Shown: positions 3,591 through 41,479 of the stretch, in pieces
How positions within the stretch are numbered: the stretch's first letter is position 1
Layout of the letters: the number at the start of each line of letters is the position of its first letter
From: Escherichia coli
GTDB lineage: Bacteria; Pseudomonadota; Gammaproteobacteria; Enterobacterales; Enterobacteriaceae
Assembly (NCBI RefSeq): GCF_048403405.1
Contig: NZ_CP183129.1
Reading direction: 5' to 3' (one strand)
Length of the DNA: 64,000 nucleotides
Program-made: the position numbers and the translations under genes
The notes under the pieces: model-generated
Told to the model about the DNA's origin: nothing
The model's input: the letters and a program-made list of their open reading frames with translations, nothing else
Database searches by the model: none

Positions 3591-4004
3591 ATGGCTAATA
3601 AACCTTCGGCAGAAGAACTGAAAAAAAATTTGTCCGAGATGAAGTTCTACGTGACGCAGAATCATGGGACAGAGCCGCCATTTACGGGTCGTTTACTGCA
3701 TAACAAGCGTGACGGCGTATATCACTGTTTGATCTGCGATGCCCCGCTGTTTCATTCCCAAACCAAGTATGATTCCGGCTGTGGCTGGCCCAGTTTCTAC
3801 GAACCGGTGAGTGAAGAATCCATTCGTTATATCAAAGACTTGTCACATGGAATGCAGCGCATAGAAATTCGTTGCGGTAACTGTGATGCCCATCTGGGGC
3901 ATGTCTTCCCCGACGGGCCGCAGCCAACGGGTGAACGTTATTGTGTTAACTCAGCCTCTTTACGCTTTACCGATGGCGAAAACGGCGAAGAAATCAACGG
4001 TTGA
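3591..4004 (+). CDS. msrB: peptide methionine-(R)-sulfoxide reductase MsrB
   Basis: 137-aa product from internal Met [10 protein letters not shown]; two CxxC zinc motifs ([16 protein letters not shown]) and catalytic RYCVNSA. Confidence 0.9.
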
Positions 4005-11165: not shown

Positions 11166-11923
11166 GTGGCGGCAAAAGACAGGATTCAGGCAATTAAGCA
11201 AATGGTTGCCAACGATAAAAAGGTGACAGTCTCAAATTTGAGTGGGATTTTTCAGGTAACCGAAGAAACCATTCGCCGCGATCTCGAGAAGCTGGAAGAT
11301 GAAGGCTTTTTGACCAGAACCTATGGTGGTGCTGTTTTAAATACAGCGATGTTGACGGAGAATATCCATTTTTATAAGCGCGCTTCATCGTTTTATGAAG
11401 AGAAGCAGCTTATTGCACGCAAGGCACTACCCTTTATCGACAATAAAACCACTATGGCAGCCGATTCCAGTAGTACCGTTATGGAATTGCTCAAATTGTT
11501 GCAGGACCGTAGTGACCTGACGTTGCTAACTAACTCGGCGGAAGCGATTCATGTTCTGGCTCAATCAGAAATTAAAGTCGTTTCAACGGGGGGGAACTAA
11601 ACAAAAATACACTTTCCCTGCAAGGAAGAATTACTAAAGAGATCATCAGCCGCTACCATGTCGATATCATGGTAATGAGTTGTAAAGGTCTTGATATTAA
11701 CAGCGGCGCGCTGGACTCTAACGAAGCGGAAGCTGAAATCAAAAAGACAATGATCCGTCAGGCGACAGAGGTTGCGTTATTGGTTGATCACTCTAAGTTT
11801 GATCGCAAAGCTTTTGTCCAGTTAGCTGACTTTAGTCATATTAATTACATAATAACTGATAAATCACCGGGTGCAGAGTGGATAGCATTTTGCAAAGACA
11901 ATAATATCCAGCTGGTGTGGTAA
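11166..11923 (+). pseudogene. ydjF: DeoR-family transcriptional regulator interrupted by a -1 frameshift in a G7 tract (11588-11594)
   Basis: N-terminal HTH ORF 11166-11600 (GTG start) and C-terminal sugar-binding-domain ORF 11669-11923 are in different frames; reading continues as ..VVSTGG/GELNKNTLSLQGR.. if one nucleotide is added in the G run. Confidence 0.6.
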
Positions 11924-12040
11924 TTTAAGCACACGTTGTCAATATTATTTGTTCCTGCGCCTGGAAAATAAAATGATGATAAAGATGCGGCAAGTGAATT
12001 TGCCGCAATTGCTACCTTTTTAGCAAATCCGAGGCACCTA

Positions 12041-15160: not shown

Positions 15161-15324
15161 GATATTGATATGAATGATATCGAAAGAGCAAAAGTATATA
15201 CGTGAGGCAGGGGGAGCGCACCTGATACTATGCGGATAAGGAAATATGGGGCGAGACAGCGGGAAGAGGATTCGTCGAGGTAAAAAAATGTGGCCGACGA
15301 TCTGTCGGCCACTCAGTACAAGAC

Positions 15325-19057: not shown

Positions 19058-21013
19058 ATGCGGTTGTTTATTGCCGAAAAACCGAGTCTGGCGCGCGCCA
19101 TTGCTGATGTCCTGCCCAAACCGCACCGGAAAGGCGATGGCTTTATCGAGTGCGGTAATGGTCAGGTGGTGACCTGGTGTATCGGTCACCTGCTTGAGCA
19201 GGCGCAGCCAGACGCCTACGACAGCCGCTATGCGCGCTGGAATCTTGCTGATTTGCCGATTGTCCCGGAAAAGTGGCAATTACAGCCCCGACCCTCCGTG
19301 ACCAAACAACTTAATGTCATCAAACGCTTCCTGCATGAAGCCAGCGAAATCGTTCACGCCGGTGACCCGGATCGCGAAGGGCAATTACTGGTGGATGAAG
19401 TGCTGGACTATCTGCAACTGGCACCGGAAAAGCGCCAGCAGGTGCAGCGTTGCTTGATAAACGACCTGAACCCGCAGGCGGTTGAGCGGGCGATCGACCG
19501 TCTTCGTTCCAACAGTGAGTTTGTGCCGTTGTGCGTTTCTGCACTGGCGCGAGCCCGAGCCGACTGGCTGTACGGCATCAATATGACCCGCGCTTACACC
19601 ATTCTCGGTCGCAATGCGGGTTATCAGGGCGTACTTTCCGTGGGACGCGTGCAGACGCCCGTACTCGGACTGGTGGTGCGCCGCGACGAAGAGATTGAAA
19701 ACTTCGTGGCGAAAGATTTCTTTGAAGTCAAAGCGCATATCGTGACACCTGCCGATGAGCGGTTTACCGCTATCTGGCAACCGAGCGAAGCGTGTGAACC
19801 TTATCAGGATGAAGAAGGGCGCTTGTTACATCGTCCGCTGGCGGAGCATGTGGTCAACCGCATCAGCGGCCAACCGGCTATTGTCACCAGCTATAACGAT
19901 AAACGGGAATCAGAATCCGCACCGCTGCCGTTTTCGCTTTCGGCGTTGCAGATTGAAGCGGCAAAACGCTTTGGTCTGAGTGCGCAGAACGTGCTTGATA
20001 TCTGCCAGAAGTTGTACGAAACGCACAAGCTAATCACTTATCCGCGTTCCGATTGTCGCTATCTGCCGGAAGAGCATTTTGCCGGACGCCACGCAGTGAT
20101 GAATGCCATCAGCGTTCATGCACCGGACTTGTTACCGCAGCCAGTGGTCGATCCAGATATACGCAACCGCTGCTGGGATGACAAAAAGGTCGATGCGCAC
20201 CACGCCATCATCCCGACCGCACGGAGTTCTGCGATCAACCTGACGGAGAACGAAGCGAAGGTCTATAACCTGATTGCCCGTCAGTATTTGATGCAGTTCT
20301 GCCCGGATGCGGTGTTCCGCAAGTGTGTTATCGAACTGGATATTGCCAAAGGCAAATTTGTCGCTAAAGCGCGTTTTCTTGCTGAAGCAGGCTGGCGCAC
20401 GCTGTTAGGCAGCAAAGAGCGCGATGAAGAAAACGACGGTACGCCATTGCCTGTGGTGGCGAAAGGCGATGAGTTGCTGTGTGAAAAAGGTGAAGTGGTA
20501 GAGCGGCAAACCCAGCCGCCGCGTCATTTTACCGATGCAACACTGCTTTCGGCGATGACCGGGATAGCACGTTTTGTGCAGGACAAAGATCTGAAAAAGA
20601 TCCTTCGTGCGACCGATGGTCTGGGGACAGAAGCGACTCGCGCCGGGATTATTGAACTGCTGTTCAAGCGAGGCTTCCTGACCAAAAAAGGGCGCTATAT
20701 CCACTCCACCGACGCCGGAAAAGCATTATTCCATTCGCTGCCAGAGATGGCGACGCGACCGGACATGACCGCGCACTGGGAATCGGTGCTGACGCAAATC
20801 AGCGAAAAGCAGTGTCGCTACCAGGACTTTATGCAACCGCTGGTGGGGACATTGTACCAGTTGATTGATCAGGCAAAGCGCACGTCGGTAAGGCAGTTTC
20901 GGGGAATAATGGCTCCCGGCGGTGGAGAAGGGAAGAAAAAGGATTCGCCACGCAAGAGAGCGCCGAAAAAAAGCCCGCCATCAGAAGAGGCGGGCAATGG
21001 AGTGATAACATAA
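19058..21013 (+). CDS. topB: DNA topoisomerase III
   Basis: starts [10 protein letters not shown] (Toprim) 4 nt after selD stop; type IA topoisomerase domains; lysine-rich C-terminal tail. Confidence 0.9.
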
Positions 21014-21050
21014 AGGTTCTTTCAACCATCTGATACTGAAGATTTTTATG

Positions 21051-21080
21051 GCCGGATTAGGCGTTTGCGCTGTATCCGGC
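21051..21080. repeat. REP-like palindromic unit in the 77-bp topB-gdhA junction
   Basis: GCCGGAT...ATCCGGC inverted repeat resembling REP consensus. Confidence 0.5.
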
Positions 21081-21089
21081 ACAATTGTC

Positions 21090-22433
21090 TTAAATCACGC
21101 CCTGGCTTAACATCGCATCCGCAACCTTCACAAAACCGGCAATGTTCGCGCCCTGCACGTAGTTGGTTTGCTCACCTTCACCACCATGCTCAACACAGGC
21201 ATGGTGGATATCCAGCATGATGTGATGCAAACGTGCGTCAACTTTCTCGGCTTTCCAGCCCAGGCGCGCAGCGTTTTGCGCCATTTCCAGGCCCGATGTT
21301 GCTACACCGCCAGCATTAGCCGCTTTACCCGGTGCAAACAGTACGCCTGCCTGCTGGAACAGTTCAGTCGCTTCGATGGTGGTCGGCATATTTGCCCCTT
21401 CGGCGACGGCTTTAACGCCATTGGCGATAAGCTGATGCGCGGCGTCAACATCCAGTTCGTTCTGGGTGGCGCAAGGCAGGGCGATATCAACTGGTACAGA
21501 CCACGGCTGTTGGCCTTCGAGATAGACCAGACCAAATTCTTTGGCGTAATCTGCCACTCGACCATCGCGGCTGGCTTTGATTTCGATAAGACGCGCCAGT
21601 TTCTCTTTCGTGAATCCGCTTTCATCAACTACAGTGCCACTGGAGTCTGACGCAGTGATCACACGAGCACCAAATTCCATCGCTTTTTCGATAGCGTACT
21701 GGGCGACGTTGCCGGAGCCAGAAACGGAAACGCGCATTCCTTCAAAACCCATACCGTGGCGTTTTAGCATTGCTTCTGTGAAATAAACCAGACCGTAGCC
21801 GGTAGCTTCCGGGCGAATAAGACTGCCGCCAAATGAAAGGCCCTTACCGGTGAAGACGCAGGCGGTATTGTTGGAGAGCTTTTTCATCATCCCCGCCATA
21901 AAGCCGACTTCACGACCACCAACCCCGATATCACCTGCCGGAACGTCGGTATCCGCGCCCAGGTGGCGATACAGTTCAGTCATCAGCGCCTGGCAAAAAC
22001 GCATCACTTCACCTTCGCTTTTTCCTTTCGGATCGAAATCGCTGCCGCCTTTACCACCGCCCATCGGCAGAGTAGTCAGGGCATTTTTGAAGGTTTGTTC
22101 GAAGCCGAGGAATTTGAGAATGGAAAGGTTAACTGACGGATGGAAGCGCATACCGCCTTTGTACGGGCCGATGGCAGAGCTGAACTGCACACGCCATGCA
22201 CGGTTGACCTGTACCTGGTTGCGATCATCAACCCATACCACGCGAAACTGGATCACGCGCTCCGGTTCAACCAGACGCTCCAGTAATGACATCTGGCGAT
22301 ATTTTGGATTTTGTTCAAGAAAAGGCCAGAGTGTGGTCATTACTTCACGAACGGCTTGCGCGAACTCGGTTTGATTCGGGTCGCGCTTTTGGACATGGTT
22401 GAGGAATGACTCCAGAGAATATGTCTGATCCAT
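21090..22433 (-). CDS. gdhA: NADP-specific glutamate dehydrogenase
   Basis: 447 aa; GDH catalytic region motif PMGGGKGG. Confidence 0.95.
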   Translation of the reverse strand: MDQTYSLESFLNHVQKRDPNQTEFAQAVREVMTTLWPFLEQNPKYRQMSLLERLVEPERVIQFRVVWVDDRNQVQVNRAWRVQFSSAIGPYKGGMRFHPSVNLSILKFLGFEQTFKNALTTLPMGGGKGGSDFDPKGKSEGEVMRFCQALMTELYRHLGADTDVPAGDIGVGGREVGFMAGMMKKLSNNTACVFTGKGLSFGGSLIRPEATGYGLVYFTEAMLKRHGMGFEGMRVSVSGSGNVAQYAIEKAMEFGARVITASDSSGTVVDESGFTKEKLARLIEIKASRDGRVADYAKEFGLVYLEGQQPWSVPVDIALPCATQNELDVDAAHQLIANGVKAVAEGANMPTTIEATELFQQAGVLFAPGKAANAGGVATSGLEMAQNAARLGWKAEKVDARLHHIMLDIHHACVEHGGEGEQTNYVQGANIAGFVKVADAMLSQGVI

Positions 22434-41441: not shown

Positions 41442-41479
41442 GGGGCGAATAAGGCGTTCACGCCGCATCCGGCGTGAAC
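41442..41479. repeat. REP element between cho and nadE
   Basis: reverse complement reads GCCGGATGCGGCGTGAACGCCTTATTCGCCCC, near-identical to E. coli REP consensus. Confidence 0.7.

Follow-up and report, generated by a model that had tools for sequence, protein, structure and literature searches.

The window, the 64,000-nucleotide stretch of Escherichia coli DNA analysed here, carries the convergent genes topB and gdhA, whose stop codons (TAA at 21011-21013 on the plus strand for topB; TTA, as read on the plus strand, at 21090-21092 for gdhA) enclose a spacer within which no open-reading frame of at least 40 amino acids is contained. The initial annotation had described the two genes as 77 bp apart, with a REP palindrome between them and without ynjI. 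Coordinates, palindrome arms and fold confirm the short spacer, the REP palindrome and the missing ynjI; the figure of 77, however, is the difference between 21090 and 21013, and the spacer itself measures 76 bp. The features of the junction are as follows.

19058 to 21013, plus strand: topB (DNA topoisomerase III), 651 aa; the open frame ends at 21013, and the annotation is the same in the near-identical NZ_CP042899.1
20897 to 21013, plus strand: allele-specific 3′ tail of topB, of Escherichia type and linked to the empty spacer; 66% identity to the K-12 tail
21014 to 21089, no strand: spacer between convergent topB and gdhA, 76 bp, interpreted as the empty state of an accessory-gene site with several alleles
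21049 to 21083, plus strand: single y-type REP (palindromic unit) hairpin, from arms, fold and pattern scan
Within this REP: core arms 21051-57 and 21074-80, inner stem 21060-63/21068-71, loop 21064-67
21064 to 21068, no strand: REP loop, hit twice independently by IS1397 in other strains
21090 to 22433, minus strand: gdhA (NADP-specific glutamate dehydrogenase), 447 aa; stop codon 6-9 nt from the REP hairpin

The palindrome GCCGGAT/ATCCGGC has its arms at 21051-21057 and 21074-21080, 16 nt apart, and a scan for GCCGGAT-N12-20-ATCCGGC returned the spacer copy and nothing else in the 64-kb window, where shuffled sequences predict 0.00 matches. Folded as RNA, positions 21049-21083 form a bulged hairpin of -20.6 kcal/mol (z = -4.9) on the plus, topB-sense strand, with -16.4 kcal/mol (z = -4.1) on the minus, gdhA-sense strand. 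This REP hairpin is the sole strong structure in the spacer, 35 nt past the topB stop and 6-9 nt past the gdhA stop. A consensus scan of 20800-21300 on both strands found no intrinsic (Rho-independent) terminator, and the T-run is positioned 5′ of the hairpin on the plus strand.

The REP in the window reads TATGGCCGGATTAGGCGTTTGCGCTGTATCCGGCA, and its counterpart at the corresponding position of locus L007, from a divergent Escherichia genome that carries the label E. coli, reads GTAGGCCGGATAAGGCGTTTACGCCGCATCCGGCA. The y-type REP consensus, which we take to be GCCGGATAAGGCGTTTACGCCGCATCCGGC, is the exact sequence of the orthologous L007 copy and differs from the window REP by four mismatches, which is why a consensus search allowing up to three mismatches missed the spacer REP; the gapped-arm pattern found it. 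A second REP-like unit, GGCGAATAAGGCGTTCACGCCGCATCCGGC, lies at 41444-41473 of the window, with three mismatches to this consensus. The orthologous REPs of L007 and E. albertii read GTAGGCCGGATAAGG..., with GTAG intact, and the window has TATG at 21047-21050 where GTAG is usual, so that its unit is a decayed copy of the true REP seen in those two genomes.

As expected of a REP, the element is an imperfect, GC-rich palindrome of 30-40 nt with an internal mismatch, and it is extragenic, located between two convergent stop codons, the 3′ ends of transcription units being the typical site. Its membership in a dispersed repeat family is indicated by the copy at 41444-41473 within the 64-kb window, by near-identical units in E. 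albertii and L007, and by an Rfam match to naRNA4, presumably a REP325-derived RNA, that is sub-threshold (30.4 bits, E = 0.002), as are all other Rfam matches. The spacer does not hold a BIME, with one REP in its 76 bp; BIMEs are present at the topB-gdhA site in K-12, Pseudocitrobacter and Citrobacter. Also absent is GTAG, the conserved tetranucleotide on the 5′ side of the stem foot, which is among the criteria for a REP (PMC3333891). Since TnpA(REP), the REP-associated transposase, requires GTAG (PMC3333891), the degenerate TATG probably means that, by the criteria of that work, the window REP is no longer a substrate of this enzyme.

Recognition by the REP-specific element IS1397 is visible in other strains, in which two insertions occupy the same loop. 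In ETEC4079, IS1397 (L003:4668-6099) is flanked by a 4-bp target duplication, TTGC, corresponding to 21065-68, and in isolate 30859_5#32 (L088:4118-5549) by a 3-bp duplication, TTT, corresponding to 21064-66. Both insertions have the same orientation, at positions 2 bp apart, and the two IS1397 copies are 98.8% identical, differing at 14 positions and at 3 gapped positions. REP-specific insertion of this IS3-family element has been shown experimentally (PMC1525189, citing Clément 1999 and Wilde 2001, 2003). Given that specificity, two landings in one loop confirm that the hairpin is a real REP.

What the hairpin may do can be approached by analogy. Protection of mRNA from exonucleases is an established role of REPs, and the window REP probably forms the shared 3′ end of both convergent mRNAs, topB and gdhA, where it would guard each against 3′ exonucleases and could attenuate read-through. 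It may also dampen the translation of gdhA, because the hairpin starts only 6-9 nt past the gdhA stop: REPs within ~15 nt of a stop codon reportedly stall ribosomes and, by way of tmRNA, lower the translation of the gene that they follow, a result said to come from Liang, Rudd and Deutscher in Mol Cell in 2015. With a spacing of 9 nt in both, gdhA would belong to this REP-near-stop class in the empty allele as well as in K-12.

In MG1655, the gene order is gdhA (b1761), ynjI (b1762, 346 aa, DUF1266) and topB (b1763), and the K-12 derivative EC600 has the same arrangement, so the placement of ynjI given in the initial annotation was right. The DUF1266 domain of YnjI covers residues 167-338 by Pfam. 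The window is collinear with K-12 from 17 to 38804 except at topB-gdhA, where homology is interrupted from 20985, inside topB, to 21089; K-12 has 1,311 bp opposite this gap, and the window has a spacer without any ORF in the place of the DUF1266 gene. Both K-12 REPs, an inverted y-like unit and a z2 unit, sit between ynjI and gdhA, and the gdhA-proximal REP is thus z2-type in K-12 and y-type in the window. The topB-ynjI interval of K-12 contains only a non-REP hairpin followed by eight T residues, AAATATCCAGCGGAT…ATTCGTTGGATATTTTTTTT (L002:2755-2799), and no REP was found there; the suggestion that REP copies flank the indel therefore fails, as the K-12 copies are confined to the gdhA side of ynjI. 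This hairpin and T8 are conserved ahead of all the ynjI alleles compared (K-12, L093, L096, L098, L099), and they are probably a topB terminator carried along with the cassette. The GC content of ynjI is 41%, compared to 53-55% for its neighbours topB and gdhA, and BglJ-RcsB activates the gene and an hns stpA mutation relieves its repression to a moderate extent (PMC3950696), a regulation that fits acquired DNA. In EC600, gdhA (L002:4002-5345) is annotated as two ORFs of 1,203 nt and 123 nt, which points to either a disruptive mutation or an error close to its 5′ end.

The frequency of the alleles was determined in a census of 5,426 complete E. coli genomes.

Empty, with topB and gdhA next to each other as in the window: 1,516 genomes (28%)
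K-12-type ynjI segment: 3,457 genomes (64%)
Second ynjI allele (68% aa identity): 13 genomes
HscC-like Hsp70 (43% identity to HscC) with a J-domain/Sel1 fusion: 275 genomes
Remainder, including IS-interrupted or deleted versions: ~165 genomes

The 181-bp junction itself is present in 1,494 of the 5,426 genomes (at least 80% coverage, 98-100% identity), in several lineages. JJ1887 and MNCRE44 are empty and Nissle 1917 and 042 carry the Hsp70/J cargo; as JJ1887, MNCRE44 and Nissle 1917 belong to phylogroup B2 and 042 to phylogroup D, the alleles cut across lineages and do not follow them strictly. In K-12, BL21, O157:H7, O55:H7, O111 and O104:H4, either ynjI is present or topB and gdhA are separated. 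ynjI is an optional cassette and not a core gene. The absence of ynjI had been taken as a strain-specific indel, a reading that does not survive the finding of the same junction in 1,494-1,516 of 5,426 genomes and of similar ones in E. albertii and other enterics. Neither is the junction a clean indel, as divergence begins within the 3′ end of topB and to each cargo belongs a separate TopB tail.

Species-representative genomes that encode GdhA were scanned, and among the matches listed were 12 enteric loci with a readable gdhA-topB neighbourhood; Salmonella and E. fergusonii were not among the matches listed. At 10 of these 12 loci, the stops are 90-240 bp apart with REPs or short hairpins only and no ynjI, each outgroup species being represented by one genome, so that an empty representative does not prove the species to be without ynjI. 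Among the matches listed, the ten empty loci belong to E. albertii, L007, Pseudocitrobacter faecalis, Citrobacter werkmanii, Citrobacter sp., Kluyvera, 'Escherichia sp. ESNIH1', two Enterobacter spp. and a soil MAG; the remaining two (L013, L016) have larger inserts between gdhA and topB.

Empty outgroups do not decide the direction of change by themselves, on two counts: the YnjI family is very small, forming 8 clusters at 90% identity, and every ynjI allele with readable context, in at least four enteric lineages, lies between the 3′ ends of topB and gdhA. A Hadza-gut metagenome contig carries an 80%-identical ynjI at this site (L096:5001-6032), while its selD, topB and gdhA are 98-99% identical to those of P. 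faecalis DSM 27453 (L009), itself empty, making Pseudocitrobacter polymorphic for the presence of ynjI. Two further enterics have ynjI alleles at 60% and 58% identity at the same site, so that the alleles span 58-80% amino acid identity.

The direction of change was addressed by comparing the last 117-123 nt of topB between alleles. The window tail is 84% identical to that of L007 and 82% to that of E. albertii, and only 66% to that of K-12, which in turn is 80% identical to the Pseudocitrobacter tail, figures to be read with caution, since so short a TopB tail, rich in Lys and low in complexity, may evolve fast and mislead. Over the rest of topB, K-12 and the window share 95-97% identity, and this drops progressively toward the 3′ end, to ~90% in the last 500 nt and 66% in the last 117 nt. 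The empty and ynjI-containing alleles of Pseudocitrobacter have one common topB tail (99%). With an Escherichia-type tail in the window and a Pseudocitrobacter-like tail in K-12, the empty allele has the look of the native state and the ynjI cassette that of an import, the closest ynjI donor found being at ~80%. In place of a loss of ynjI in the window, the tail comparison thus points most likely to a gain of ynjI in the K-12-type allele. In E. albertii NBRC 107761 (L008), topB has an in-frame TAG 27 codons ahead of the usual stop (…APSSGE*KKKASPRK…) that truncates the Lys-rich tail, which suggests that this tail is dispensable.

These observations can be assembled into one account, in which topB and gdhA, two convergent core genes, would flank an old accessory-gene site with several alleles, of which the window would carry the empty one. 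The empty allele, consisting of the Escherichia-type tail and the y-type REP, would be native to the genus Escherichia and would have been kept by 28% of complete E. coli genomes. The K-12-type cassette would comprise a foreign-looking topB 3′ tail, the hairpin and T8 terminator, ynjI and the two-REP BIME; it would most likely have entered E. coli by homologous recombination, with crossovers inside topB and at the 3′ end of gdhA, and then spread. A third allele encodes the HscC-like Hsp70 and the J-domain/Sel1 protein. Taken as a whole, an empty native allele with a REP hairpin in its spacer, and a ynjI cassette that was most likely imported, is the best explanation and one that we consider probable.

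A first alternative, a lineage-specific deletion in which ynjI was lost from an ancestral topB-ynjI-gdhA arrangement, perhaps by REP-REP recombination that left the single REP as a scar, draws on the presence of ynjI in K-12 and in 64% of complete genomes and on a REP whose distance from the gdhA stop, 9 nt, is shared by the two alleles. On the topB side of ynjI, however, K-12 is without a REP and so offers no REP pair to recombine, and its gdhA-proximal unit is z2-type where the supposed scar is y-type. A deletion also cannot yield a topB tail of the E. albertii/Escherichia type from one of the K-12 type, and by this tail comparison the deletion reading is already largely refuted. Together with the empty state of the sampled outgroups (ten species representatives among the matches listed) and the 98-100% conservation of the junction in 1,494 genomes of several lineages, this makes a deletion very improbable. 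Loss of ynjI through collapse or mis-joining of the assembly at the REP has even less in its favour: two homopolymer-length differences from the nearest record point to some sequencing noise elsewhere in the window, but the identical junction occurs in at least 1,494 independently assembled complete genomes and the empty allele has a coherent topB tail of its own. An artefact is already refuted by these population data, and its likelihood is negligible.

An ancient trans-species polymorphism, with ynjI present in the ancestor of Escherichia, Pseudocitrobacter and Citrobacter, repeated independent losses, and the window as an old loss allele, accounts for the finding that all context-readable ynjI alleles (the two of E. 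coli, that of Pseudocitrobacter and those of two other enterics) share one site and a conserved upstream hairpin and T-run, as well as for the polymorphism within Pseudocitrobacter. The ynjI genes of K-12 and Pseudocitrobacter are, in addition, 80% identical, about as similar as core genes of the two (81%). The relationships among ynjI alleles nevertheless contradict those of their hosts. At the DNA level, the two E. coli ynjI alleles are 71% identical, less than the 80% between K-12 and Pseudocitrobacter, while the gdhA flanks are 97% identical between the two E. coli alleles and 80% between K-12 and Pseudocitrobacter; in L098, flanks that are 87% identical to Pseudocitrobacter accompany a ynjI of only 65%. 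In E. coli, the TopB tail that accompanies ynjI belongs to the Pseudocitrobacter type and not the Escherichia type, ynjI has a low GC content, and the ten species representatives named above are empty (among the matches listed), all of which speaks against this history and leaves it, in our estimation, fairly unlikely. On the import reading, which we prefer, ~35 residues at the C-terminal end of K-12 TopB appear to have arrived with the cassette.

The third cargo at topB-gdhA was located in Nissle 1917 (L087:1435-5945), at L006:4371-8011 and in strain 042 (L091), and it is linked to a TopB tail of its own (...VKKAPNKRVKKAAKP...). In Nissle 1917, an extra 266-aa ORF without any Pfam family precedes the Hsp70 and J-domain/Sel1 genes. 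In ECE170 (L004:5606-9085), the Hsp70/J cargo is truncated by IS1B and the next gene past IS1B is spy, not gdhA, indicating a large IS1-associated deletion or rearrangement beside the site. Similar components are found in K-12 at the hscC locus (L090, MG1655 675570-683393), ordered ybeQ/ybeR/djlB/ybeT/ybeU/djlC/hscC, which encodes Sel1 (ybeQ, ybeT), DUF1266 (ybeR, ybeU), J-domain (djlB, djlC) and Hsp70 (hscC) proteins. The occurrence of the same domain types at the hscC locus and in both topB-gdhA cargos hints that YnjI may work with an Hsp70/J system.

Several possible relationships among these proteins were considered and discarded. YnjI, considered as a possible remnant of the third allele's J-domain protein, has no similarity to that protein (E = 0.98), which consists of DnaJ and Sel1 domains, not DUF1266; nor is the 266-aa hypothetical protein of Nissle 1917 a YnjI homologue, as it has no Pfam family and its BLASTP match extends over 49 residues only (E = 5e-4). 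BLASTP of YnjI against YbeR and YbeU gave no match at E < 0.01. Among the PADLOC defence models, no match was obtained for YnjI or for the 266-aa protein, and the matches of the Hsp70 to PDC-M61B (1.9e-4) and of the J/Sel1 protein to PtuA (6e-6, with no stretch passing alone) were rejected as too weak. A broader proposal, which we regard as quite unlikely, is that the topB-gdhA spacer would be a long-lived, trans-species cassette site of the Enterobacteriaceae kept variable by selection, occupied by rapidly diverging alleles of YnjI, a membrane protein, by the Hsp70/J pair or by nothing, the YnjI and Hsp70/J cargos being interchangeable parts of one uncharacterised chaperone-based system, possibly of conflict or defence. 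If this were true, the window would be a natural null for that system.

The initial annotation had also concluded that the sequence is not K-12, and this is borne out by an identity of ~97.4% to MG1655, compared to 99.97% over 22.5 kb to E. coli CFSAN061763 (NZ_CP042899.1), isolated from raw-milk cheese in Egypt, whose sequence the window matches at 100% over the 1.3 kb surrounding the junction. In those first 22.5 kb, the differences from CFSAN061763 are at 3642, 6866, 9721, 10029, 15173 and 15282 and in a G-run of ydjF; five are substitutions and two are homopolymer-length changes, that at 15282 (A7 vs A6) lying between ansA and sppA. With so few differences, the window would be a very close relative of CFSAN061763 or another assembly of that strain, though not that exact record. 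The ydjF gene (11166-11924, plus strand) is broken by the loss of one G, at 11588, from a run of eight that has become G7 at window positions 11582-11588; NZ_CP042899.1 has G8 and an intact, annotated ydjF, and the identical G7 allele occurs in one of the 5,426 complete E. coli genomes (B1.H1.39). The frameshift is likely either a sequencing error in the homopolymer or a slip of very recent date. It had been argued that the absence of ynjI makes this frameshift more plausibly a natural allele, which does not follow for a one-nucleotide loss that is absent from the nearest genome and found once in 5,426; the state of ynjI is no argument on whether the frameshift is natural. The ydjF region of the window is closest to phylogroup-D-like strains such as 042, yet 042 has the Hsp70/J cargo.

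The empty topB-gdhA junction with one REP was correctly described and is ordinary, a known kind of feature both as a REP between convergent genes and as a polymorphic accessory-gene site, and in itself the finding matters little, the window being non-K-12 E. coli with a common allele. The multi-allelic site and the recurring set of Hsp70, J, Sel1 and DUF1266 genes could guide studies of the function of YnjI or HscC.

Compared to the topB-ynjI-gdhA locus of K-12 (b1761-b1763), the window has the same flanking genes, likewise convergent, and a REP at the same distance of 9 nt from the gdhA stop, but it is without ynjI, the hairpin and T8 terminator after topB and the second REP, and its TopB has 651 aa as opposed to 653 aa in K-12, with a C-terminal tail of 66% nucleotide identity. 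The hairpin resembles the y-type REP or palindromic unit of E. coli (Bachellier et al.; Ton-Hoang et al. 2012, PMC3333891) in its imperfect, GC-rich palindrome, its mismatch bulge and its extragenic position between convergent genes, and differs from typical REPs in standing alone, without a BIME pair, and in the change of GTAG to TATG. The number of REPs at the site is one in the window, two in K-12 and three in E. albertii. As a target of IS1397, the same loop was hit in other strains, and the window itself has no IS there. Chromosomal hotspots for accessory genes between core genes, exchanged through flanking homologous recombination, are a general concept of the pan-genome. The topB-gdhA site is like them in its alternative cargos (none, two ynjI alleles, Hsp70/J), in the raised divergence of the adjacent core gene and in its distribution across lineages, while differing in that its cargos are small, at 1-3 genes, and have no integrase, tRNA or att site.
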